Source: Candidatus Saccharimonadota bacterium (lineage in GTDB: Bacteria; Patescibacteriota; Saccharimonadia; Saccharimonadales; JAICHO01). Taken from it: 45,020 nt of DNA. The stretch spans positions 1 to 45,020 of the forward strand of contig JAICHO010000004.1 of assembly GCA_025924835.1 (NCBI GenBank), read 5' to 3'. The notes beneath the pieces were generated by a model that was not told where the DNA came from, did not search any database, and saw only the letters and a program-made list of their open reading frames with translations. Positions 7,936 through 18,848 of this stretch are shown piece by piece. The position numbers and the translations under genes were made by a program. Each line of letters starts with the position of its first letter. Positions within the stretch are counted from its first letter, which is position 1.

Positions 7936-8002
7936 ACATTTACACGGAATATAAATTTAAGCAGTGTGTCATTCACTGGGAACCCAAAGGAGAATGATCC
8001 GC

Positions 8003-8119
8003 ATGAAAGTGCGTGCTAGTGTCAAAAAGATTAGTCCTGACGATAAGATTGTGCGCCGCAAAGGGCGTATTTACGTTATAAACAAACTTAAGCCCAAGCA
8101 TAAGCAGCGGCAGGGATAA
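8003..8119 (+). CDS. rpmJ: 50S ribosomal protein L36 (Cys-free; not in ORF track)
   Basis: [38 protein letters not shown]; AAGGAG SD upstream; lies between infA and rpsM. Confidence 0.97.
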
Positions 8120-8124
8120 AGCAT

Positions 8125-8511
8125 ATGGCACGTATATCTGGTATAACCATTCCTGACAACAAGCAGATCAACGTATCGCTGACGTATGTGTACGGAATTG
8201 GACCAAAATCATCGTTTGATATATTAAAGAACGCTAACGTTGAACCAACTACGAGGGTCAAGAACTTGACCGATAGCGAGGTTGCTGCCATTCAGGATAT
8301 TATCAATGAAAAATACATGGTTGAAGGCGAGCTGCAACGAGTCGTGGCAACTAATGTGAAACGACTAAAGGATATCGGCAGTTACCGTGGTTTACGCCAC
8401 AAAAACAGCCTCCCCAGCCGTGGTCAGCGTACGCGTACAAATGCACGAACCCGCCGTGGCAAAAAGACAGCCGTAGGCGGCTCGCAACCTAAGTCAGCGT
8501 CGAAGACATAA
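8125..8511 (+). CDS. rpsM: 30S ribosomal protein S13
   Basis: MARISGI...LTYVYGIG...YRGLRH..LPSRGQRTRTNARTR. Confidence 0.99.
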   Translation: MARISGITIPDNKQINVSLTYVYGIGPKSSFDILKNANVEPTTRVKNLTDSEVAAIQDIINEKYMVEGELQRVVATNVKRLKDIGSYRGLRHKNSLPSRGQRTRTNARTRRGKKTAVGGSQPKSASKT

Positions 8512-8522
8512 GGAATAAATAT

Positions 8523-8936
8523 ATGGCAGAACCAACAACTACTACATCCCCATCCCCAGCTCCCAAGAAGAAGAAATCTAAGCGTTCAGTACCAACTGGC
8601 CAGGTACACATTTTGGCTACATTTAATAACACGATTATTACCTTTACCGACAACAATGGGGGCTCATTAGCCGCCTCGTCTGCTGGCGCCTGTGGATTTA
8701 GAGGCTCCAAAAAAGGCACCGCTTATGCCGCTCAGGTTGCTGCGGAAAAAGCCGGTCAAATCGTTAAACAAATGCACGGGCTGAATAAGGTTGACGTATA
8801 CATCAAAGGCATCGGGCTGGGCCGCGAAGCCGCTGTTCGCAGTTTGCAGAACCTAGACATTCACGTTGATTCTATTAAGGACGTAACTACCGTTCCGCAT
8901 GGTGGAGTACGCCCTAAGAAAGCTCGGAGGGTCTAG
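8523..8936 (+). CDS. rpsK: 30S ribosomal protein S11
   Basis: ATFNNTIITFTD...GFRGSKKGTAYAAQ...DVTTVPHGGVRPKKARRV. Confidence 0.99.
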   Translation: MAEPTTTTSPSPAPKKKKSKRSVPTGQVHILATFNNTIITFTDNNGGSLAASSAGACGFRGSKKGTAYAAQVAAEKAGQIVKQMHGLNKVDVYIKGIGLGREAAVRSLQNLDIHVDSIKDVTTVPHGGVRPKKARRV

Positions 8937-8939
8937 CAT

Positions 8940-9560
8940 ATGGCACGCGATACCGGATCAATTGTAAAAATGAGCCGCCGAGAAGGCTACGCTTTGCACC
9001 CCAAGGCTCATAAAGCACTCGTTAAACGCAGTACGATGCCGGGCCAAGTCACAACTGGGCGTGGCTCACGCAACAAGGCAAGCCAATATTCATTGCAGCT
9101 GCGCGAAAAGCAAAAGGTCAAAAGATTGTACGGACTACTGGAACGGCAATTCGCGAAGCTTATGGCCGAGGCCTCCCGTAAACAGGGGCAGTCAGGTGAA
9201 TCACTGCTGCAATTTCTAGAGCTTCGCGCTGATAATGCCGTGTACCGGGCCGGTTTGGCGACATCACGGCGTGCCGCCCGTCAGCTGGTTACCCATGGTC
9301 ATTTTATGCTTAATGATCGCCGGGTTGATATACCGTCTATTCGCTTAAGAACCGGTGATGTTTTAGTTGTGCGGACGCACAGTAAACAAACTGAATACTT
9401 TAAGAAAATTGAGGATGTAAGCCCCGCCCCAACAAGTTTACCCGGCTGGCTTAAAACTGATCGCAAGAAACTGGCTATCACTATCACTGGCGTTCCAACG
9501 CGGGAAGAAGCAGAACCAGATATCAATGAGCAACTAATTGTTGAGTACTACTCACGCTAA
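8940..9560 (+). CDS. rpsD: 30S ribosomal protein S4
   Basis: QLREKQKVKRLYGLLERQF...ARQLVTHGHF...EQLIVEYYSR. Confidence 0.99.
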   Translation: MARDTGSIVKMSRREGYALHPKAHKALVKRSTMPGQVTTGRGSRNKASQYSLQLREKQKVKRLYGLLERQFAKLMAEASRKQGQSGESLLQFLELRADNAVYRAGLATSRRAARQLVTHGHFMLNDRRVDIPSIRLRTGDVLVVRTHSKQTEYFKKIEDVSPAPTSLPGWLKTDRKKLAITITGVPTREEAEPDINEQLIVEYYSR

Positions 9561-9580
9561 CCCGAGGAGGGCAATAACTT

Positions 9581-10522
9581 ATGTCAAAAATCATTCACAC
9601 ACCTGGAGTCGTACACGTTGACGAGCACACCGCCAATAGCGCTACCTTTACCATCGAACCCCTGCACACCGGCTACGGTATGACACTAGGTAACAGCTTA
9701 CGGCGCGTTCTGTTGTCTTCTATATCAGGTGCTGCAGTTACCTCCTTTAAGATAGAGGGAGTGACACATGAATTTACTACTGTTAAGGGAGTGAAAGAAG
9801 ATGCTGTAGATATCATGCTTAATCTTAAGAGCATTCGCTTCCGTGTTTTTGGAAACGACGCTCAAAACCTGCGTATTGTAACCCAAGGCAAGGGCGTTGT
9901 TACTGCTGCGGACATACAAACCAATGCTGACGTAGAAATCGTTAACCCCGATCAAATCATTGCCACCATTGATGATGACAAAGCCAAATTTGTGATGGAC
10001 CTGGTGGTTGAAACCGGCCGTGGGTACCGCACTATAGAAGAAGGTACCGCTAAAAAAGCCAGTGATATGATTGCCCTTGACGCTATTTTCAGCCCGGTTG
10101 TACGCGTTCGCTACAAGGTTGAAAATACCCGTGTTGGCCAAATGACCGATTTGGACAAATTGCTGCTTACGGTAGATACCGATAACTCCATCACTCCCCG
10201 CGACGCTTTTGAAGAAGCGGCTGCTATCCTCGTAAATCAATACACGGCGCTAGCAGGTCAGACGCGCGTAGAAACATCGGCACCACTTACTGCTGGTTCG
10301 GACGCTACCGATACCAAAGACGGCGATGAACCAGCCGAACTCATGACTCCCATCGAGGACCTTAATCTATCGGCACGTACAACAAACGCGCTTATCAACA
10401 ATGATATTCACACCTTAAAGGACCTCTTCTCTTTAAGCGATATTGAGTTGCGCGAACTAAAAGGTTTTGGCAGCAAAGCCTTAGATGAAGTCAAAGAAAA
10501 AATGGCGGAGTTGGAGATTTAA
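9581..10522 (+). CDS. rpoA: RNA polymerase alpha subunit
   Basis: EPLHTGYGMTLGNSLRRVLLSS, RVGQMTDLDKL, CTD IEDLNLSARTTNAL. Confidence 0.99.
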   Translation: MSKIIHTPGVVHVDEHTANSATFTIEPLHTGYGMTLGNSLRRVLLSSISGAAVTSFKIEGVTHEFTTVKGVKEDAVDIMLNLKSIRFRVFGNDAQNLRIVTQGKGVVTAADIQTNADVEIVNPDQIIATIDDDKAKFVMDLVVETGRGYRTIEEGTAKKASDMIALDAIFSPVVRVRYKVENTRVGQMTDLDKLLLTVDTDNSITPRDAFEEAAAILVNQYTALAGQTRVETSAPLTAGSDATDTKDGDEPAELMTPIEDLNLSARTTNALINNDIHTLKDLFSLSDIELRELKGFGSKALDEVKEKMAELEI

Positions 10523-10524
10523 TT

Positions 10525-10968
10525 ATGCACCGCCACGGTTACAAAGGACGTAAGTTCAATAGAGAAAGCGACCAGCGTACGGCACTTGTCAAAGGCCTGG
10601 CGGATTCATTGATCATGCACGAGTCTATTGAGACGACTCTGCCAAAAGCCAAAGAAATCGTACCGTATGTTGAGAAGCTTATTACCAAAGCCAAAAAAGG
10701 CGATTTACATAATCGGCGGCAGATTATAGGCAGCCTGCAAACCACCAGTAGCGCCCACAAATTGGTTGACGATATCGCCCCCAAGCTTGGCGGCCGAAGT
10801 AGCGGCCATTTACGGGTTGTGCGAACACGGATGCGCCGCGGCGATAATGCTCAGTTGGCACGAGTAAGCTTTGTAGATGATTTGCAGGAAGCCCCTGTCG
10901 CCAAAGCGGTAACAAAACAACCTTCTGCCAAAAAGCCACGTCAAGCGGCCAAGGAGGACAAGCAATGA
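10525..10968 (+). CDS. rplQ: 50S ribosomal protein L17
   Basis: MHRHGYKGRKFNR...IETTLPKAKE...RRGDNA; Lys/Ala-rich C-terminal tail. Confidence 0.98.
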   Translation: MHRHGYKGRKFNRESDQRTALVKGLADSLIMHESIETTLPKAKEIVPYVEKLITKAKKGDLHNRRQIIGSLQTTSSAHKLVDDIAPKLGGRSSGHLRVVRTRMRRGDNAQLARVSFVDDLQEAPVAKAVTKQPSAKKPRQAAKEDKQ

Positions 10969-11405
10969 AAACCTACAGTGCAAAACCATCTGATGTAACT
11001 AGGAAGTGGTATATTATTGACGCCAGCGAAGTACCTATGGGACGTCTGGCCACCCGGGCAGCGACGCTGCTTACCGGTAAGGGCAAGCCCCAGTTTACGC
11101 ATCACATTGATACCGGCGACTATGTAATAGTTGTTAACGCCGCATCACTTGTGGCTACTGGTAACAAACTGAATGATAAAGTTTATCAGCGCCACAGTGG
11201 TTATCCGAGCGGTCTGACGACTACAACGCTGAAGGATCAAATTGCCAAAGATCCAACTGCTCCAATTTTTAAGGCGGTTCGGGGGATGCTACCAGTTAAC
11301 AAACTGAGGGCCGAACGCCTCAAGCGTCTCAAAATTTACGCTGATGAGAATCATCAGCACGAAGCTCAAAAACCAGAACAATTATCTATGAAAGCAGGTA
11401 AATAA
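10965..11405 (+). CDS. rplM: 50S ribosomal protein L13
   Basis: RKWYIIDA...GRLA...DTGDYVIVVNA...VRGMLP. Confidence 0.99.
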   Translation: MKTYSAKPSDVTRKWYIIDASEVPMGRLATRAATLLTGKGKPQFTHHIDTGDYVIVVNAASLVATGNKLNDKVYQRHSGYPSGLTTTTLKDQIAKDPTAPIFKAVRGMLPVNKLRAERLKRLKIYADENHQHEAQKPEQLSMKAGK

Positions 11406-11809
11406 TGGCTGATAAATCCAAAAATTATTTTTATGCGTTAGGTCGGCGCAAAAGTTCTACTGCCCGTGTTCGGCTTATGAGCGGCAAAGGTCTAATTAGC
11501 GTAAACCATAAACCTGCTGCCGAGTATTTTGCTGATAGTAAGGCTATCTTGCACGAGCTAGAACGACCTTTGATCGCACTGGAAATAGAAAACAAGTACG
11601 ACGTAAGCGCAGTGGTATCAGGTGGTGGCCACAGTAGTCAATCTGATGCGATACGCCTAGGTATCGCTAAAGCGCTCGCTGTCATGAACGAAGACCTGAA
11701 GGCAACTTTACGCCGTGCCGATATGTTAGGCAGAGACCCCCGCGAAAAAGAACGCAAGAAGTTCGGCCTTAAAGGCGCCCGTAAACAACGTCAATTCACA
11801 AAACGATAG
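11405..11809 (+). CDS. rpsI: 30S ribosomal protein S9
   Basis: GRRKSSTARV...GGG...RDPREKERKKFGLKGARKQRQFTKR. Confidence 0.99.
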   Translation: MADKSKNYFYALGRRKSSTARVRLMSGKGLISVNHKPAAEYFADSKAILHELERPLIALEIENKYDVSAVVSGGGHSSQSDAIRLGIAKALAVMNEDLKATLRRADMLGRDPREKERKKFGLKGARKQRQFTKR

Positions 11810-11826
11810 ACCTCCGCTGACAACTG

Positions 11827-11835
11827 TGTTAATAT
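11827..11835 (+). promoter_or_regulatory. Putative extended -10 promoter (TG-T-TAATAT) for the aromatic leader
   Basis: TGnTAATAT ends 7 nt before the leader ATG at 11843, consistent with a leaderless start. No strong -35 element. Confidence 0.45.
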
Positions 11836-11842
11836 ATTTGCG

Positions 11843-11908
11843 ATGTCAACAGCTAACCCAGTCGCTTCAGTCTATTGGTTTACCGACTTTATTAAGGCGG
11901 TTAGCTAG
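11843..11908 (+). CDS. Aromatic amino acid attenuator leader peptide (21 aa)
   Basis: MSTANPVASVYWFTDFIKAVS*, with consecutive Tyr-Trp-Phe plus another Phe. Protector helix AGCTAACC 11851-58 : GGTTAGCT 11899-906. Antiterminator AGGCGGTT 11895-902 : AACCGCCT 11932-39. Confidence 0.88.
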   Translation: MSTANPVASVYWFTDFIKAVS

Positions 11909-11931
11909 TTAAAGTGTGAACAATTTTAATC

Positions 11932-11955
11932 AACCGCCTCACCGGGCGGTTTTTT
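11932..11955 (+). terminator. Intrinsic terminator of the aromatic attenuator
   Basis: AACCGCC-tcaccg-GGCGGTT followed by a T run; 35 nt upstream of the DAHP synthase ATG. Confidence 0.9.
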
Positions 11956-11990
11956 AATACCAACCTAATGTATAAAGAGTAAGCAACCAA

Positions 11991-13172
11991 ATGAAAACAT
12001 TACTTTCGGGCAGAATTGGTAGCGCAGAAGAAATAGTTAGTGCGTTACCTGAACCAGATTACGAGCATAATTTTCAACCTACATACTCAAACCGTGATTA
12101 TTTGGTACAGACTGTTGGTGAACTACTTGTCACCGGAGCGGTAACTACACCTGCTCAAATCAACGCGATCACTAAGGATTTGGCTCTTGCCAGTCAACGG
12201 GGGCATGAACGTCCTATAATGATTACGGACAGTTGCTCAGAAAGCGTAAGCTTAAGAGCTGATTTTAATGCTATGGTTGGTAATGTGATTATGTCAAGAA
12301 GCCTGGTTTTAGGTATCTATGGGAACGCAATCTATTTTGGACGAAACCGCGGACAAAACACCAAGCCTAGGTCAAGTCAATTTCAGGTCTTGTCAAATGG
12401 TGTTATCGTGCCTTCATATTACGGAGACGCGGTAAACGGCTATGACCCATCGGATCGAGAACCCGATCCTAGCCGCATGGTGGCAGCGGCATCTCAGGCC
12501 AACGCCATAGAAGCCCATACACAACGCAGGCTTGGTATCCATGTGCCCGCAGCTCATGAAGCCCTGCTCTTGCCTTACGAGTTTAGCTTTGTTAGCGCCC
12601 GTGGAGGCAAACGATACCTCTTGTCTGCTGATTTACCGTGGTTAGGTAAACGAACAAATGACCCGAAAGGCCCTCATGTGCAGTTCCTGGCAACGGTTGA
12701 AAATCCGATTGGCGCTAAGATAGGTGATAATTCTGACGCCAATCATATCTCGGAACTTGCGCGCATACTTAATCCTAATAGGAGACCTGGCAGATTGCTC
12801 TTTATGCTTCGGCTTGGGAACAACGTGAAGGCTATGGACGAAATAGTCAAAGGTATCAATAAATATGCACCAGATTCTGATATTTTATATGACATGCACG
12901 GTACCACCGACCAATTACCAGACGGTACGAAAATACGGGCTGTACCTACTATTGTTGACGACATAGTACTGCTCGCGACGGTGTGTGCAAAGTATGGTCG
13001 CGCTTTGAAAGGGCTGCATCTGGAAACCCATACTGATAATTCTAGGTATGAGTGTGTTGACGAGGTAGGGCAACGACCTGCCCACAAGAGCATAGTTGAC
13101 CCCGGGCTTAACCCTAATCAGACACGACGGGTGCTACATAAGACAGCTCATTTATTCGCAGGTACTAACTGA
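11991..13172 (+). CDS. Class II DAHP (3-deoxy-7-phosphoheptulonate) synthase, divergent and short
   Basis: Motifs in order: DSCSE (cf. GDCAE), GQNTKPRS, PSYYGDAVNG, PDPSRM, HEALLLPYE, WLGKRT, NPIGAKIG, DMHGTT, GLHLET..ECV, DPGLNPNQ. Confidence 0.85.
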   Translation: MKTLLSGRIGSAEEIVSALPEPDYEHNFQPTYSNRDYLVQTVGELLVTGAVTTPAQINAITKDLALASQRGHERPIMITDSCSESVSLRADFNAMVGNVIMSRSLVLGIYGNAIYFGRNRGQNTKPRSSQFQVLSNGVIVPSYYGDAVNGYDPSDREPDPSRMVAAASQANAIEAHTQRRLGIHVPAAHEALLLPYEFSFVSARGGKRYLLSADLPWLGKRTNDPKGPHVQFLATVENPIGAKIGDNSDANHISELARILNPNRRPGRLLFMLRLGNNVKAMDEIVKGINKYAPDSDILYDMHGTTDQLPDGTKIRAVPTIVDDIVLLATVCAKYGRALKGLHLETHTDNSRYECVDEVGQRPAHKSIVDPGLNPNQTRRVLHKTAHLFAGTN

Positions 13173-13918
13173 TGGAGTTAGGTAGTTTTGGAATAGTTGG
13201 CTACGGTGTATTCGGGGAATTACTAACAGAATTATTAGCGCCACATGCTAAGGTCGTAATAAGCAGTCGCAGGGAAATTCCGGCCTATGATCTGCCCGCT
13301 AATGTAATGGTCGGCTCATTGGCCGAAGCCGCTAAGTGCGATGTGCTTATTTTGTGCAATGAACTCGCTGCATTGGAGGCAGACTGCAAAAAACTGGCGA
13401 CGTTAGTAAAACCGGCCACAGTTGTTATGGATGTATGCTCAGTTAAACTGTTGCCGGCACAAATTATGCGCGATAACCTTAGCGACAAGTGCAGAATATT
13501 AGCAACACATCCATTATTTGGTCCGCAAAGCGTTCCAAAAGGTGACGGCCACGGCAAAAAAATAGTCTGGCATGAGGTATCTGGCGGACCGTTTCCTAAC
13601 CTGGAGGACTTTTTTGGCAAAACCTTGGGTCTCAAAATCATCAAAATGCTCCCCGAAGAGCATGATAAACAAATGGCGTGGGTGCACAGTTTAACTTTTT
13701 TTATAGGCCGCGGTCTTTTGGAACTGAATCCACCAGAGTCCGAGCTTTCAACCAACTACTACGAACGCTTACTTAGTGCTGTTGACGTGGAAAAACATCA
13801 TAGCTATGAATTGTTCAGATCTATTCAATTGGGCAATATTTATTCTGGTCAAGTACGAAAGGACTTACTCCGAATACTGCAGTCGCTTGACGAGCAACTG
13901 CTTGAGGATCATATATGA
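13172..13918 (+). CDS. tyrA: Prephenate/arogenate dehydrogenase
   Basis: Rossmann GIVGYGVFG, DVCSVK, HPLFGP, EEHDKQMAWVHSLT. Confidence 0.9.
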   Translation: MELGSFGIVGYGVFGELLTELLAPHAKVVISSRREIPAYDLPANVMVGSLAEAAKCDVLILCNELAALEADCKKLATLVKPATVVMDVCSVKLLPAQIMRDNLSDKCRILATHPLFGPQSVPKGDGHGKKIVWHEVSGGPFPNLEDFFGKTLGLKIIKMLPEEHDKQMAWVHSLTFFIGRGLLELNPPESELSTNYYERLLSAVDVEKHHSYELFRSIQLGNIYSGQVRKDLLRILQSLDEQLLEDHI

Positions 13919-14976
13919 GTCAGTTAACCGAGCTTGAATCGACGCGTGAGAAAATAAATGGCATTGATGACGCGATCTTAGCGCTGCTAAAATCCCGTGG
14001 TGAATTGGCACTCCATGTCAAAAAGCTCAAAGCTGATGGAGTTATCTATAAACCCGACCGCGAGGCAGAAATTATCCGCCGCGTACTTGATGCCAATAAC
14101 GGGCCATTATCCGATAAAGCCATAGTGTCAATCTACAGGGAAATTATTAGCTCCTGCCGTAATCTTCAGAAAACACTTATGGCTGCTTATCTGGGTCCAG
14201 AAGGCACCTATAGCCACGAAGCAGCCTTGAAGCTGTTTGGTAATACGGCAGAATTAATCCCCGAACTGTCATTGTCGGAAGTCGTACAAGCAGCCGAGAA
14301 AGGGACGGCAGATATGGCGTTATTGCCCGTAGAAAATTCTACAGAAGGTGCGGTCATCGAAACCCACCGGTTATTATTAAAAAGTGATCTGAAGATATGC
14401 GCTGAATTTATACTACCCGTCAATCACTGCCTGCTCACCACAGCTAAAAATTTGTCGGATATTAGGTTTGTACATGCTCATCCGCAAGCGCTCGGACAAT
14501 GCCGCGAATGGCTGCAGCTCCATGTGCCAACAGCAGAATTAATAAACGAGGCTAGCAATGGCCAGGCTGTATTACACATAAAGAAAAAGCCTTCTCGCGC
14601 GGCGATCGCCAGCTCGCAAGCATCGGTCATATTTGATGTGCCGGTCTTTATGTCGGGTATTAGTGACTCCGGCAACAATCAAACACGTTTTATTGTTCTG
14701 GGACAAAGCGCCACAGCGCCGACCGGCAGGGATAAAACCAGCATCATTTGCAGCGTTCGTGATAAAGTAGGCGCTTTGCACGAACTGTTGTCAATTTTAG
14801 CTAAAAATAAAGTGAACTTGGTACGGCTGGAATCACAGCCTCACGCTGACCATGAATATGTATTTTATATGGACATAGAAGGCCACCAGGGTACGGCTAC
14901 TATTGCCAAGGCGCTTGATGAGTTAAATGTGGCCGCCAAAACATGTAAAATATTAGGGTCATACCCCAAAGGTTAA
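13915..14976 (+). CDS. pheA: Bifunctional chorismate mutase / prephenate dehydratase (P-protein)
   Basis: AroQ-type N-terminus (REKINGIDDAILALLKSR..YKPDRE), YLGPEGTYS, PVENSTEG, HPQALGQC, NQTRF, C-terminal ACT domain, LGSYP. Confidence 0.95.
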   Translation: MSQLTELESTREKINGIDDAILALLKSRGELALHVKKLKADGVIYKPDREAEIIRRVLDANNGPLSDKAIVSIYREIISSCRNLQKTLMAAYLGPEGTYSHEAALKLFGNTAELIPELSLSEVVQAAEKGTADMALLPVENSTEGAVIETHRLLLKSDLKICAEFILPVNHCLLTTAKNLSDIRFVHAHPQALGQCREWLQLHVPTAELINEASNGQAVLHIKKKPSRAAIASSQASVIFDVPVFMSGISDSGNNQTRFIVLGQSATAPTGRDKTSIICSVRDKVGALHELLSILAKNKVNLVRLESQPHADHEYVFYMDIEGHQGTATIAKALDELNVAAKTCKILGSYPKG

Positions 14977-14978
14977 AT

Positions 14979-15884
14979 ATGCCTGCGTTTAAGCCATACC
15001 CTTTTGCTTTTATACAAAATACGGTGAAGCCTATAGAGGAAGCCACCATATCTATCATGACCAACGCTCTGCATTATGGCGGCGGAATATTTGGTGGGCT
15101 TAAAGCATACGATACGCCCAAAGGCATGGGCATATTCAGACTTGACGATCACCTAGCTCGCATGCAGACTAGCGCCAAGATCTTACGATTCCCTTATACT
15201 TTTAATAACAAAGTAGTTAGTCAACAAATTATCGATCTTGCCACCAAAAATAAACTTACCGGGAAAACCTATATACGGCCTATCCTGTATCGCAGCGACA
15301 CCCAGCTCTCACCCGATATTTCTGGTGAATACGACTTGGCAATTTATATGCTAGAAATGACCGCGGATTATCTGGCTACTAGTGATGGGCTTTCGGTTTG
15401 TGTTTCATCCTGGCAGCGCAATAGTGATAACGCCTTGCCGCCACGTACCAAAGCCACGGGCGGATACTTAAATTCTGCACTTGCAATCCATGATGCCAAA
15501 CAAGGCGGTTACGATTCTGCCATTATGCTAAATCATCGTGGCGAAGTAAGTGAAGGCGCTGTTATGAATTTGTTCCTGGTAAAAAATGGCATGTTGGTTA
15601 CACCATCAATGGAAGCGGATATTTTAGAAGGCATAACCCGGCGTACGATTATGGAACTAGCAGTTGAACTGGGTATTTCTGTGCAGGAGCGTCCTGTCAG
15701 CCGCAGCGAACTTTATAGCGCAGACGAACTTTTCTTTTGCGGTACAGCTGTTGAGATATCGTGGTGCAAATCAGTAGACAATGTAGAAATCAGTGCCCAC
15801 ACAGGTCACATTACAGCCAAATTAACACAGGCCTTCGCCTCACTGCCCAAAACGCACCCTCATCTCTACACTTTATTGGGATAG
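14979..15884 (+). CDS. ilvE: Class IV PLP aminotransferase (IlvE-like), probably serving the Phe/Tyr transamination step
   Basis: ALHYGGGIFGGLKAY, FRLDDHLAR, KATGGYLNS, EGAVMNLF, ILEGITR, DELFFCGTA. Confidence 0.9.
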   Translation: MPAFKPYPFAFIQNTVKPIEEATISIMTNALHYGGGIFGGLKAYDTPKGMGIFRLDDHLARMQTSAKILRFPYTFNNKVVSQQIIDLATKNKLTGKTYIRPILYRSDTQLSPDISGEYDLAIYMLEMTADYLATSDGLSVCVSSWQRNSDNALPPRTKATGGYLNSALAIHDAKQGGYDSAIMLNHRGEVSEGAVMNLFLVKNGMLVTPSMEADILEGITRRTIMELAVELGISVQERPVSRSELYSADELFFCGTAVEISWCKSVDNVEISAHTGHITAKLTQAFASLPKTHPHLYTLLG

Positions 15885-15950
15885 GCTAACGCGCTTAGCG
15901 ATAACTAGCCGTAACGTATATAATAGTCGTAACAATGGGAGTAAAACAGT

Positions 15951-16970
15951 ATGGCTAAACAGGTAATCCTCACCGGTCTCCGAGCTAATAATGGATTGCA
16001 TATCGGCAACTATTTGGGCGCATTACTACCTATGGTTGATATGGCAAATAAACACGCTGCCGAATATCAAATTAATCTGTTTGTGCCTGATTTGCATAGC
16101 TTTACAACTCCGATTGACCATATGCAGTTGTATGAGCAGACCATTAACAACTTAAAGATATTTGTTGCCGCCGGACTTGATTTAAATAATCCTAATATAC
16201 ATATTTACCGACAAAGTTTCATACCAGCCCATAGTGAGCTGACGTGGATTCTGGACTGTTTCACTGGATTTGGTGAAATGTCTCGTATGACCCAATTTAA
16301 AGATAAATCAGATAAACTATCCGAGGACAGAATAAGCGTCGGTCTTTTTAATTATCCGGTGCTTATGGCGGCTGATATTTTGCTGTATGGTGCCAGTTAT
16401 GTACCGGTCGGCGACGATCAGTCGCAGCATATTGAATTTACTCGTGATATTGCTGAGCGGATGAATGCCAAGTTTGGCGAGCTTTTTGTGGTTCCTAAGC
16501 CCGTCAAAGAACAACATGCTTTTTTTGGCAAAGACCAAGGCTTGCGTATCCGCGATCTGACCGACCCACATAAAAAAATGAGTAAAAGCGACGAAACGGG
16601 CAAAGGTGTCGTTTTTTTGGGTGACAGCGCTGATACAGCCAAACGAAAGATTATAGGCGCCGCAACCGACTCACTGAATGAAGTCCGGCACGATTATACA
16701 GCGCAACCCGGCGTAAGCAATCTGCTGGACATTCTGACTTTGCTTGGGGGTAATGCACAAGATTTTGTAGGGCAGAACCAATATGGCCCCCTAAAATCAG
16801 CTGTGGCTGAAAAAGTCGCGGTATTTTTGGATCAGTTTCAGGGGAGCCTAAAACATGTGGATACATCGGCATTGACGCACAAACTAGAGACCAGCGAAGT
16901 GGCCATGAACGCTCAAGCGAGTCAGACACTCTATAGGGTGCAAAAAGCTGTTGGATTGAGAGTTGCATAA
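15951..16970 (+). CDS. trpS: Tryptophan--tRNA ligase
   Basis: HIGN (LHIGNYLG), YPVLMAADIL, VPVGDDQSQH, KMSKS. Confidence 0.97.
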   Translation: MAKQVILTGLRANNGLHIGNYLGALLPMVDMANKHAAEYQINLFVPDLHSFTTPIDHMQLYEQTINNLKIFVAAGLDLNNPNIHIYRQSFIPAHSELTWILDCFTGFGEMSRMTQFKDKSDKLSEDRISVGLFNYPVLMAADILLYGASYVPVGDDQSQHIEFTRDIAERMNAKFGELFVVPKPVKEQHAFFGKDQGLRIRDLTDPHKKMSKSDETGKGVVFLGDSADTAKRKIIGAATDSLNEVRHDYTAQPGVSNLLDILTLLGGNAQDFVGQNQYGPLKSAVAEKVAVFLDQFQGSLKHVDTSALTHKLETSEVAMNAQASQTLYRVQKAVGLRVA

Positions 16971-16974
16971 CGGT

Positions 16975-17133
16975 ATGCCAGCAGAAAAGGCACCACATGG
17001 ACTGGAAAGATTAACAGGGGCATTTGCCAATATCGTCATAATGCTAGGCGCACTGGCTGCCGGGGCCTTCTTTTTTAAGAAATCTTTAGGCTCTAAGTCG
17101 CCAGAGAGAAAAAAGCATGCACAGCAGCGATAG
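16975..17133 (+). CDS. Putative 52-aa single-TM small protein (not in ORF track)
   Basis: MPAEKAPHGLERLTGAFANIVIMLGALAAGAFFFKKSLGSKSPERKKHAQQR*. Starts 4 nt after the trpS stop and overlaps the next start. TM helix plus basic tail. Confidence 0.6.
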   Translation: MPAEKAPHGLERLTGAFANIVIMLGALAAGAFFFKKSLGSKSPERKKHAQQR

Positions 17134-17998
17134 TCAGGTACCTGCAGACTATTCAAAAACCCAAAGACTGGACCAGTATGTACTTGCGAACTATCCGGAA
17201 CTTAGCAGGTCTTATGCTGTGCGGCTTATTGAAGAAGCCAAAGTGTTGGTTAATGGGACAAAAAGTAAACCCGGTTACAAGCTGAGGGCAACAGACAATG
17301 TCACTATTAATTACAATCCGGCCGAAGAAAGGCAAATCCCGAATATTGACTTGCCCGTTTTATATCAAGATGATAACGTGCTGGTGATTAACAAGCCAAT
17401 AGGTGTTATTAGCCATGCGAGAGGTAAATATTGGGATGAGCCCTCTGTGGCTTCATTTGTGCGCCAAATAACAGGACAGGCCGGCGATAGGGCGGGAATT
17501 GTACATAGACTGGACAGAGCAACGAGCGGCGTTATGATTTGCGCCAAAAATCAGCAGACATTGGCGCTGTTGCAACGGCAGTTTTCTGACAGAAAAGTTA
17601 AAAAAACCTATACAGCCATCGTAAGCGGCCACCTACAACCAGCGCAAGCTATAATTGATATGCCCATAGAACGTAACCCTAAAGCACCATCAACTTTCAA
17701 AGTCGGTAGTAATGGCAAATCAGCTCAAACGAAGTATACGGTAATTACGAGCAATGATATGTATGATCAGGTCACATTAGAACCAGCTACCGGCCGCACC
17801 CATCAGTTACGCGTCCATTTGAGTTACCAGGGCCATCCTATTGTCGGCGATTCATTGTATCAAGGACAAACTGCGGATAGGCTATATTTGCATGCCCACC
17901 AGTTGATTATTGCTATCCCCGAAATAGGCTTAAAGTCCTTTACCGCACCTTTACCTGCGGAATTTGACCGCTTAATGAAAGCCGGGAGAAATGACTGA
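17117..17998 (+). CDS. RluA/RluD-family pseudouridine synthase
   Basis: S4 domain (RLDQY), INKPIG, GIVHRLDRATSG, TGRTHQLRVHL, HPIVGD. Confidence 0.96.
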   Translation: MHSSDSQVPADYSKTQRLDQYVLANYPELSRSYAVRLIEEAKVLVNGTKSKPGYKLRATDNVTINYNPAEERQIPNIDLPVLYQDDNVLVINKPIGVISHARGKYWDEPSVASFVRQITGQAGDRAGIVHRLDRATSGVMICAKNQQTLALLQRQFSDRKVKKTYTAIVSGHLQPAQAIIDMPIERNPKAPSTFKVGSNGKSAQTKYTVITSNDMYDQVTLEPATGRTHQLRVHLSYQGHPIVGDSLYQGQTADRLYLHAHQLIIAIPEIGLKSFTAPLPAEFDRLMKAGRND

Positions 17999-18848
17999 TT
18001 TTTTAATTCACCCCGCCACCAAGATGCAGCTGCAAACCATGCTGGAAGCACTACCGCATGCGGTGCTGATGAGCGGAGAAGAAGGGGCTGGCAAAAAAGC
18101 ACTGGCCCTCTACAGCGCATGTCACATTCTGGGTATTCAAAATTTAGACAATTACCCTTATTTTTTTCAAATAACGCCCGAGAAACAGACGATAGGGATT
18201 GAGGCCATTCGTGCCTTACGATCCTTTTTAAACCGTAGAACAACAGGCTCAAGTACGATCCGACGAATAGTGTTAATAGGCGATGCCCAGACTATGACTA
18301 ATGAGGCACAAAACGCATTGTTAAAGTCGCTGGAAGAACCTCCTGATGATACGATTATCATGTTGACCGCGTCTGATATAAATCTTTTAAAGCCAACTAT
18401 CGTTTCCCGCGCACAACATATTAATGTGCGGCTTCTCAGCCTTGACTACGCCCTAGCAACTATAAAGGACCATGACGAAAAGGCAATTACAAGCGCCTAT
18501 TATATGAGCGGTGGCCGTATTGGATTACTTGTGGCATTGTTGGAGCAAAAGGCCGATCATCGCCTGGTTCAAGCCATTGAACAGGCAAAAACAATACTAC
18601 GATTAAACACGTACCAACGACTGCTGCTTATTGATGGTCTCAGTAAGCAAAAGGCTGACATTGAACATATGCTGGCAGGGTTGCAATGTGTGGTTACCAG
18701 CGGATTGGCCCAAGCAGCGCTGAAAAATAATAAAGAATTAACCAACAAATTTCATTTATTGAGTCGCCAGTTATCAGATAGCGGCAACAGCTTACGCAAA
18801 ATGGGCAATCCGAAACTAGTTTTGTCTGATCTGTTTTTACAGATGTAG
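17991..18848 (+). CDS. holB: DNA polymerase III delta' subunit
   Basis: LPHAVLMSGEEGAGK, IGIEAIR, AQNALLKSLEEPP, LKPTIVSRA. Confidence 0.88.
   Translation: MTDFLIHPATKMQLQTMLEALPHAVLMSGEEGAGKKALALYSACHILGIQNLDNYPYFFQITPEKQTIGIEAIRALRSFLNRRTTGSSTIRRIVLIGDAQTMTNEAQNALLKSLEEPPDDTIIMLTASDINLLKPTIVSRAQHINVRLLSLDYALATIKDHDEKAITSAYYMSGGRIGLLVALLEQKADHRLVQAIEQAKTILRLNTYQRLLLIDGLSKQKADIEHMLAGLQCVVTSGLAQAALKNNKELTNKFHLLSRQLSDSGNSLRKMGNPKLVLSDLFLQM

Follow-up and report, generated by a model that had tools for sequence, protein, structure and literature searches.

The leader region between rpsI and the aromatic genes

In this study, the region between the ribosomal protein gene rpsI and a group of genes for aromatic amino acid metabolism was investigated in a stretch of DNA of 45,020 nucleotides (the window; contig JAICHO010000004.1, positions 1 to 45,020 of the forward strand) from a Candidatus Saccharimonadota bacterium, whose genome (G000) has a size of 1.0 Mb, is divided into 51 contigs and is 95% complete. 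We observed that a short open reading frame (ORF) with adjoining Tyr, Trp and Phe codons, hereafter the leader, lies directly after rpsI and is followed by an intrinsic terminator, behind which a gene for a class II 3-deoxy-D-arabino-heptulosonate 7-phosphate (DAHP) synthase family protein begins. Very probably, transcription is attenuated here in the classical way, by a leader ribosome that responds to the charging of tRNA-Trp and tRNA-Phe and, in this lineage, of tRNA-Tyr as well, a reading supported by conservation, covariation and geometry in up to 50 related elements. The same proposal, an attenuator keyed to aromatic codons in which an antiterminator competes with a terminator, had been made in an original prediction from the letters of the window, and a check of the sequence and of the base pairs recovered the leader codons, the antiterminator, the terminator and the protector helix, as well as both flanking genes, where it had placed them (Table 1).

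Table 1. Positions of the leader elements and of the neighbouring genes in the window
Feature	Position	Strand	Remarks
rpsI (ribosomal protein S9)	11405..11809	+	PF00380, E 2.6e-41; upstream neighbour
Candidate leader promoter	11807..11835	+	-35-like TAGACC 11807-12; 17-nt spacer; TG 11827-28; -10 TAATAT 11830-35
Leader ORF	11843..11908	+	ATG 11843; TAG 11906-08; 21 codons plus stop; product MSTANPVASVYWFTDFIKAVS
Protector helix	11851-58 : 11899-906	+	AGCTAACC : GGTTAGCT; 8 perfect pairs
Regulatory codons	11873..11881	+	TAT 11873-75, TGG 11876-78, TTT 11879-81 (Tyr-Trp-Phe)
Local hairpin	11882..11901	+	ACCG 11882-85 : CGGT 11898-901; CTT 11887-89 : AAG 11894-96; -5.7 kcal/mol
Antiterminator	11895-902 : 11932-39	+	AGGCGGTT : AACCGCCT; 8/8 perfect pairs
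Spacer hairpin (predicted)	11908-15 : 11923-30	+	between leader stop and terminator; nested in both alternative folds
Intrinsic terminator	11932..11955	+	stem AACCGCCT/GGGCGGTT (11932-39/11944-51); 4-nt loop CACC; T-run 11950-55
Class II DAHP-synthase-like gene	11991..13172	+	short, 393 aa; PF01474, E 1.7e-55; predicted first regulated gene
Prephenate dehydrogenase	13172..13918	+	Pfam
Chorismate mutase/prephenate dehydratase with ACT domain	13915..14976	+	Pfam
Class IV aminotransferase	14979..15884	+	Pfam
trpS	15951..16970	+	66-nt gap after aminotransferase; -10-like TATAAT 15919-24; Shine-Dalgarno GGGAG

The 5' strand of the antiterminator is located within the last codons of the leader ORF, with its GGCGG core starting 20 nt after the first base of the Trp codon. 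Its partner strand AACCGCCT is at the same time the 5' strand of the terminator, an 8-bp GC-rich stem followed by six T, so that the two structures are mutually exclusive. The protector helix has additional inner pairs (AGTCG 11860-64 with CGACT 11884-88), and all named pairs of protector, antiterminator and terminator were found to be canonical. The computed energies were -12.2 kcal/mol for the terminator, -10.5 kcal/mol for the antiterminator, and -8.7 kcal/mol (8 bp) or -11.9 kcal/mol (8 + 5 bp) for the protector. As a whole, the leader RNA (11843-11962) folds to -30.5 kcal/mol compared with -22.4 +/- 3.4 kcal/mol for dinucleotide shuffles (z -2.36, with 2 of 200 shuffles as good), and its minimum-energy structure consists of the protector, the spacer hairpin and the terminator. 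When the upstream leader was shuffled, 144 of 20000 sequences contained a perfect 8-bp complement to the antiterminator region, and the decisive evidence beyond chance comes from conservation in other genomes.

During the analysis of the leader start, a candidate promoter was noticed whose -35-like hexamer overlaps the rpsI stop codon (TAG, 11807-09) and whose -10 hexamer ends 7 nt before the leader ATG; it was not among the predictions of a simple promoter scan of the window. The sister genome displays the same layout (TAGACC-17-TACAAT-7 nt-GTG), and TTGACA-17-TANNNT is found at equal distance before the leader in most relatives. Among the 30 best loci of the leader family described below, TANNNT ends 5-10 nt upstream of the leader start in 29, with 7 nt in 15 of them, and a Shine-Dalgarno-like motif before the leader start was detected in none of the 30, nor in the window. 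Across the genome of the window, a tally of the 566 ORFs that are preceded by 50 nt or more of intergenic space showed that strong -10 hexamers peak 6-9 nt before start codons (33, 14, 14 and 16, together 77 occurrences, over a background of about 3 per position), and Shine-Dalgarno motifs peak 5-10 nt before start codons. Leaderless mRNAs seem to be common in this organism, and since a -10 hexamer about 7 nt before the ATG is combined with the lack of a Shine-Dalgarno motif, the leader ORF is probably translated from a leaderless transcript with its own promoter.

A scan of 8000-18000 revealed no terminator-like site on the + strand from the rpsI stop (11809) to 16466 other than the hairpin at 11932-55. 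Since there is no other terminator after rpsI, it may also end the rplM-rpsI transcript. This part of the original prediction is retained, but its further suggestion, that the aromatic genes are tied to read-through from the ribosomal genes, is not needed given the candidate promoter directly after rpsI.

Distribution and covariation of the leader family

Orthologues of the DAHP-synthase-like gene were searched for in 401 genomes sampled from the order (E <= 0.001) and 401 genomes sampled from the class (E <= 1e-30), and the gene was found to be rare, with matches in 14 and 4 genomes, respectively. Leaving aside the remaining weak matches, which were partial or distant and were excluded, 11 full-length orthologues including that of the window were obtained, with proteins 35-53% identical. 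The original prediction had proposed to look for Tyr-Trp-Phe leaders upstream of such genes in other genomes, and all 11 orthologues are preceded by a short ORF with aromatic codons clustered around W-F (YWF, FWF, YHWF, WFYFF or YYTWNFNYFF), followed by a GGCGG-type strand. The outcome named in the original prediction as refuting it, orthologous leaders devoid of aromatic codons, was thus not observed. A CCGCC...GGCGG-T(n) terminator stands next to the gene in 10 of the 11 leader regions, the copy of L006 being decayed, and the covariance model introduced below (R1) gives a full match at all 11 loci. In L006, the decayed element lies beside the DAHP synthase gene, and a good copy is located about 400 nt further upstream. 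The leader of the sister genome starts with GTG, reads MSRATPVVTNYWFTGYN and has a stop codon that overlaps AGGCGGTT. The gene upstream of the orthologous elements varies, being rpsI, rpsI with other ORFs, an ABC transporter or others.

Further searches enlarged this set little. A single-protein scan of named genomes returned just one distant relative, a family-level search around G337 gave no further orthologues, and a metagenome scan with the 11-protein alignment gave no new close loci, L076 being a repeat of L008. In the metagenome locus L075, the contig ends 48 nt before the DAHP synthase gene, and the other metagenome enzymes inspected (8 of 80 loci inspected) were 26-37% identical, belonged to GC-rich organisms and had no leader. 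Searching with the pattern TGGTTY plus a generic terminator yielded 55 matches, mostly from unrelated phyla and only one with a DAHP synthase; the pattern was rejected as unspecific, with a gap too short for most relatives, and it disclosed that the terminator sequence itself is generic and recurs in unrelated phyla.

The region before trpS was also surveyed in 27 genomes of other families without DAHP synthase, where a rule-based scan detected a similar leader and terminator in 17, with one match on reverse-complement controls. Fourteen of the 17 were kept as clear, with L184 and L189 excluded as doubtful. The alignment A3 contains 24 elements, and the covariance model R1 was built with the terminator as its sole structure; the alignment A4 contains 50 elements aligned to R1 and is therefore not fitted to the antiterminator helix. 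R1 matches 87 of 151 order genomes at E <= 0.001, and 75 of 131 high-quality genomes, usually with one match per genome and with two in G007, G018, G044, G062, G071, G074 and G118. G034 gave neither a DAHP synthase nor an R1 match and enters the tallies only as one genome. R1 assigns 65.3 bits to the window (E 5.4e-9 within the window's genome), which is a match by construction, as the window is one of the 24 training members. Two-copy elements were seen in tandem or flanking the DAHP synthase (G018:C10 2597-2861; G044:C62 2103-2594; G071:C29 18128-18617; G118:C2 28722-29220; L005 1303-1433 and 2682-2791). A 22-base element motif was found in 66 records of the named genome collection, of which 59 are titled Saccharibacteria, Saccharimonadales, Saccharimonadia or Microsaccharimonas, and the others 'Patescibacteria group' (2), plain 'bacterium' (4) or 'Bacillota' (1); on account of these titles the leader family is placed in Saccharibacteria, which agrees with the Patescibacteria named in the original prediction.

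The anatomy of the element was counted in the 30 best R1 loci, 21 of which are outside the training set. In all 30, an ATG or GTG in frame with the W codon lies 27-39 nt upstream of it (30 nt in 16 and 33 nt in 9), which places W at codon 10-14. The residue after W is F in 30 of 30 and the one after that is T in 27, and the residues ahead of the aromatic cluster are not conserved across leaders. Where the original prediction had seen one codon for each end product of the pathway, the conserved rule is W-F, preceded by Y in 14 leaders, F in 14 and another residue in 2. Counted from the first base of the W codon, the distance to the GGCGG core is 20 nt in 16, 21 nt in 9 and 22 nt in 5 of the 30, and the nucleotides of the core are read in all three frames, giving AVCSVR, RGGLFR and AWR. 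Because of this fixed distance and the three reading frames, the GGCGG strand is considered to be kept as RNA and not as peptide. We take the distance from the regulatory codons to region 2 in trpL to be similar. In most of these loci rpsI lies within 1.5 kb upstream (27/30) and trpS within 1.5 kb downstream (25/30). The window shares the remaining features of the family, namely a start before W-F, a -10 hexamer about 7 nt from the start and a position between rpsI and trpS.

With regard to pairing, 79.8% of the antiterminator cells in A3 were paired compared with 70.1 +/- 1.7% after shuffling, 31 cells were changed on both sides compared with 13.3, and the score was 0.307 compared with 0.159, each value being reached by 0 of 500 shuffles. 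In A4, the respective values were 80.5% compared with 74.1 +/- 0.9%, 49 double-changed cells compared with 22, and a score of 0.224 compared with 0.138 (each 0/500), with compensatory changes in 9 of the 14 pairs. These shuffle counts are not probabilities, as the sequences are related, and controls in which the helix was slid, which retain the relatedness, were far lower, with 29-47% paired in A3 and 35-51% in A4. Examples of compensatory changes are GGACGG:CCGTCC in L009, GAGACGG:CCGTCTC in L074, where the 3' strand of the terminator has changed too, and GCGGG:CCCGC in L174. For the terminator in A3, five pairs were changed on both sides compared with 1.5 after shuffling (1/500). The protector helix fared differently: its eight perfect pairs are present, form part of the best fold of the window and are unlikely to have arisen by chance (144 of 20000 shuffles), but it is not conserved in the relatives, and neither the sister genome nor L169 has a helix that corresponds to it. 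A local hairpin of the ACCG:CGGT type was also predicted in several relatives.

Proposed mechanism and competing explanations

A standard ribosome footprint begins about 15 nt upstream of the first base in the A site and reaches 12 nt beyond it, and a ribosome stalled at Y, W or F would accordingly cover 11858-11891, including the 5' strand of the local hairpin (11882-85), or 11861-11891 when only W or F is considered. The latter footprint leaves 11851-58 behind the ribosome, which renders doubtful the step of the original prediction in which the stalled ribosome masks the 5' strand of the protector. Its companion step, that the stalled ribosome leaves 11895 and onward free and that a ribosome at the stop masks the antiterminator, is borne out by masked folds: with the ribosome at Y, W or F the antiterminator comes out as the most stable fold (-15.3 kcal/mol), and once the ribosome is at the stop, which lies 4-6 nt past AGGCGGTT, it covers 11891-11918 and the antiterminator is blocked. 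In the naked nascent RNA up to 11943, the antiterminator state (-20.7 kcal/mol) is slightly better than the protector state (-18.3 kcal/mol), and with such a near-tie the default without translation would depend on the folding order. The local hairpin at 11882-901 is a better candidate for the third helix (anti-antiterminator) than the protector, because it lies within the footprint of the W/F-stalled ribosome, unlike the 5' strand of the protector.

Taken together, the parts, their conservation, the covariation of the antiterminator and the fixed spacing were observed, and the following course of events is proposed, in which we infer from sequence where transcription starts, that the leader is translated without an untranslated region, that the ribosome stalls, and in which direction the genes respond. 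From a promoter adjoining rpsI, transcription would start on the leader ATG (11843) or only a few bases away from it, and a 70S ribosome would load on the 5' end and trail the polymerase closely. When aromatic aminoacyl-tRNA is plentiful, the ribosome would proceed to the stop at 11906-08 and cover AGGCGGTT, AACCGCCT would pair with GGGCGGTT, and transcription would end at the T-run. When Trp-, Phe- or Tyr-tRNA is scarce, the ribosome would stall with TAT, TGG or TTT in its A site and its front edge about 5-8 nt short of 11895; the local hairpin would be melted and AGGCGGTT would pair with 11932-39 as that strand emerges. The terminator would thus be blocked and the polymerase would continue into the genes for the DAHP-synthase-like protein, prephenate dehydrogenase, chorismate mutase/prephenate dehydratase and aminotransferase, and possibly into trpS.

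Several points weigh against this attenuator. The start site, termination and the starvation response are read from the DNA and are presumed, and the physiological logic is incomplete, as the DAHP synthase is accompanied by no downstream pathway found in the genome. The leader holds a single codon of each kind, a weaker sensor than the codon runs of textbook cases. Thr is the residue after W-F in 27 of the 30 leaders, and in the sequences inspected its codon occurs with each of the four possible third bases; this conservation, which goes beyond plain codon counting, hints at a constraint on the peptide or on the local RNA. A wider slice of the window (11810-11990) folds no better than its shuffles (z -0.92; 37/200), and the best nascent-RNA fold lacks the antiterminator in 7 of 24 folded elements. 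A third helix in a fixed register was paired at 57.3% compared with 56.3% in shuffles (192 of 500 as high). Register-free sequestration of the antiterminator strand had a mean of 0.70 compared with 0.61, with 16 of 24 elements above their shuffle mean (Wilcoxon p 0.053), and in the window it amounted to 0.87 compared with 0.72, with 10% of shuffles as high, so that the tendency of the upstream RNA to sequester the antiterminator strand is weak.

The fixed peptide motif invites another explanation of the sensor, in which the leader encodes a regulatory nascent peptide and [Y/F]-W-F-T arrests the ribosome in response to a small molecule or a tunnel state, in the manner of TnaC with free tryptophan; the stall would stem from the peptide and not from scarce charged tRNA, with the RNA switch remaining the same. 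In its favour, the motif is unusually fixed (W-F in 30/30, Thr in 27/30, W at codon 10-14), the Thr residue is kept while the third base of its codon varies, and W-F-x-D presumably resembles the TnaC motif. We consider this explanation unlikely, for arrest by an abundant amino acid would activate biosynthesis at the time of least need, the residues that precede the cluster are not conserved, and the alternation of Y and F before W (14 and 14 of 30) suits interchangeable aromatic codons better than a fixed sensor peptide; the AC bases of the Thr codon could also be kept because they pair with GU in the GGCGGU strand. Alternatively, the choice might be set by another known RNA mechanism (a riboswitch, a tRNA sensor of the T-box type or an RNA-binding protein similar to TRAP), and the ORF would be irrelevant. 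This would agree with the position of the element near trpS and with a precedent in Firmicutes, where, according to PMC1262725, aminoacyl-tRNA synthetase and aromatic genes are under T-boxes or TRAP. A scan of 11000-13000 against Rfam 15 with permissive filters gave no family at its gathering score and no T-box or riboswitch among the matches up to E 10, and the four sub-threshold matches were at chance level. The best of them, RNAI (11871-11958, 31.2 bits against a gathering score of 47, E 0.0023), covers the attenuator stem-loops and is taken as a chance likeness of hairpin-rich RNA. In addition, only about 50 nt of RNA precede the antiterminator, these are conserved as a reading frame and not as a structure, and GAG/UAG repeat arrays are absent, all of which makes such a sensor highly improbable.

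Equally improbable, in our judgement, is that the hairpin is a plain terminator of the rplQ-rplM-rpsI transcript, with both the short ORF and its complementarity to the terminator being fortuitous and the aromatic genes transcribed from elsewhere. It is true that rpsI has no other terminator, that it is the upstream gene in 27 of 30 related loci, and that the AACCGCC...GGCGGTTTTTTAAT hairpin is of a generic kind also present in unrelated phyla. Nevertheless, 30 to 50 elements share the ORF with its frame and W-F, the distance of 20-22 nt and an antiterminator that covaries, and at loci with a neighbour other than rpsI (L005, L008, L011 and L074) the element is still found with the DAHP synthase. 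In the three inspected genomes in which trpS directly follows rpsI (L177, L186 and L193) there is no leader; a plain terminator is present in L177 and L193, and the two genes of L186 are separated by a gap of just 42 nt. The sequence comparison already contradicts this explanation. Control of translation or of RNA stability, in which the hairpins would gate a downstream ribosome-binding site or a nuclease, has nothing specific in its favour apart from a first downstream ORF 10-35 nt past the T-run in related loci. The 3' hairpin bears all marks of an intrinsic terminator (a GC-rich stem and 5-7 T) and in the window ends 36 nt before the ATG of the DAHP synthase gene, outside its Shine-Dalgarno region, and we give this kind of control very little credit. 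A ribosome-mediated attenuator keyed to aromatic codons remains our preferred explanation.

Genes behind the leader and relation to known systems

In the window, the genes for prephenate dehydrogenase, chorismate mutase/prephenate dehydratase and aminotransferase touch or overlap at their ends, and they stand beside the DAHP synthase gene only in the genus of the window. No terminator was found between the operon and trpS in the scan of 8000-18000, and read-through may add to trpS transcription. As trpS has its own -10 box, which was seen in nearly all inspected genomes, any control of trpS by the attenuator would be additive. A TATAAT is located 7-11 nt before the trpS ATG in most relatives, and 26 nt before it, together with a Shine-Dalgarno motif, in the window. 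Following trpS, the window contains genes for a pseudouridine synthase, holB and a TPR protein. Among the other 10 orthologous loci, trpS comes after the DAHP synthase gene in 8, directly or past one or two unrelated genes, and a rluD-holB-TPR run is present in the 6 of these 8 with contigs long enough. The trpS gene matches in two pieces, split by a gap or a stop, in G012:C7 45256-46338, G013:C37 5005-5817, G037:C1 21447-22535, G039:C2 19429-20523, L202 1875-3107 and L212 1858-3095, and the gene could in these cases carry an insertion, be frameshifted or be split.

In other families of the order, different genes were found to come first behind the leader. The first gene belongs to the class I DAHP synthase family (PF00793) in L195 (373-1323) and L213 (1627-2796), and encodes prephenate dehydratase (PF00800) in L207 (1626-2486) and L217 (645-1490, - strand) and, as detected by tblastn, in L221 (1628-2482); in L198, L199, L201 and L216 it encodes an unknown protein of 286-355 aa. 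The occurrence of two unrelated DAHP synthase classes and of prephenate dehydratases behind one leader provides a link to aromatic amino acids that is independent of the codons. The commonest first gene, in 19 loci among L196-L224, is a small ORF (32-123 aa) that shows little conservation and immediately precedes trpS. This small ORF has a Shine-Dalgarno-like motif in 12 of the 19 (examples are L196 1636-1833 and L203 1640-1825), and several of them share a stretch similar to A-R-x-L-L-R-E-H-x-V, without a counterpart in the window. Asp/Glu-racemase-family genes (L157 3679-4374, - strand; L215 347-1042, - strand, after the second element copy) and an M15 D-Ala-D-Ala dipeptidase-like gene (L156 2718-3440) were also observed in the island between leader and trpS; they have no obvious link to aromatic amino acids.

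The original prediction had regarded the DAHP synthase as the entry enzyme of an aromatic pathway under control of the leader, and this was not upheld by a pathway search in the window genome, the sister genome and three further holders of the gene (G000, G001, G337, G141 and G520). The chorismate synthase, 3-dehydroquinate synthase and shikimate dehydrogenase families were detected in 0 of the 5 genomes, as were the TrpA and chorismate-binding (TrpE) families, and the shikimate kinase family in 1 of the 5; as positive controls, the pathway families were recovered in 11-14 of 14 reference genomes. The shikimate core and the Trp pathway are likely absent from G000, likely and not proven because the genome is 95% complete. 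The solved structure closest to the DAHP-synthase-like protein is 6bmc_A, a DAHP synthase of 405 aa (E 6e-32). In the 11-protein alignment, the KPRS motif is kept and C82, H303, E345 and D370 are invariant, which may serve as metal and phosphoenolpyruvate ligands.

A ribosome-mediated attenuator before a DAHP synthase operon has a parallel in Corynebacterium glutamicum, where the operon of the DAHP synthase gene aroF is preceded by the aroR leader with Phe-Tyr-Phe (Neshat et al. 2014, as reported in PMC11802643), and where only Phe limitation is described there as effective. Both leaders use a mixed aromatic cluster instead of a run of a single residue. They differ in that the Saccharibacteria leader belongs to another phylum, has an unrelated sequence with an invariant central Trp ([Y/F]-W-F-T), and is a single-copy, order-wide element placed between rpsI and trpS, with a DAHP synthase lacking the shikimate pathway and a response that is predicted. 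With the textbook attenuators trpL, pheL (pheA) and pheST of Escherichia coli (Yanofsky 1981 and others, as presented in PMC11802643), the element shares regulatory codons, a strand common to antiterminator and terminator, and a stop codon placed to cover the antiterminator strand, and pheST applies the same logic to an aminoacyl-tRNA synthetase. The E. coli leaders have a Shine-Dalgarno motif, a 5' untranslated region, a conserved 1:2 pause hairpin and tandem codon repeats, whereas the Saccharibacteria ORF is seemingly leaderless, its 1:2 helix is unconserved, and it has one codon each of two or three amino acids.

Outside Proteobacteria, leader-peptide attenuation at a tryptophanyl-tRNA synthetase gene has likewise been predicted in Streptomyces, where classical attenuators upstream of trpS and leuS are listed in PMC1262725. 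Those are computational predictions in Actinobacteria with Trp-only leaders, unlike the Saccharibacteria loci, which mostly have a small ORF or an aromatic cassette before a trpS gene with its own -10 box. In mycobacteria, leaderless short ORFs encoding polycysteine are reported as Cys-responsive attenuators (bioRxiv 10.1101/834739), and they resemble the present leader as short ORFs at the 5' end of the transcript, without a Shine-Dalgarno motif, that control an operon through stalling at one class of codons. The amino acid and the phylum are different, and the Mycobacterium cys leaders are described as having no obvious terminators (PMC1262725), in contrast to the canonical covarying terminator and antiterminator of the Saccharibacteria element. 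No description of a Saccharibacteria aromatic attenuator or DAHP synthase was found in Rfam or in the literature searched, which included few subscription journals.

A broader picture, which we regard as speculative and rather doubtful, is that the [Y/F]-W-F leader is the single aromatic-starvation switch of Saccharibacteria and gates a variable rpsI-trpS island carrying a half-pathway shared with the host, through which the starved episymbiont would produce or convert intermediates of the shikimate pathway and exchange them with that host; the leaderless AUG about 30 nt from W would then act as a ruler that replaces the pause hairpin. If true, the orphan enzymes of the island would be a DAHP synthase of class I or II, a dehydratase or dehydrogenase acting on prephenate and an aminotransferase, joined by a small protein that evolves fast, and the host exchange would be explained by a symbiont without the steps from DAHP to chorismate.

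Though the mechanism is that of the textbooks, the element stands out as order-wide, single-copy and apparently leaderless, and it flags orphan aromatic enzymes in obligate symbionts. Minimal regulation and a lack of amino acid biosynthesis are traits usually ascribed to Saccharibacteria and other Patescibacteria. The element serves as a strong functional label independent of the sequence of the genes behind it, and these genes likely matter when aromatic amino acids are short; they encode DAHP synthases of two unrelated classes, prephenate dehydratases, a protein of the Asp/Glu-racemase family, and both small and large proteins of unknown kind. The puzzle of DAHP synthases without a shikimate pathway becomes directly testable, and the element could join RNA family libraries and improve the annotation of Saccharibacteria genomes. 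The wide conservation of a single-copy attenuator in the order suggests that Saccharibacteria monitor the supply of aromatic aminoacyl-tRNA by the logic of the E. coli trp operon, apparently on a leaderless transcript.

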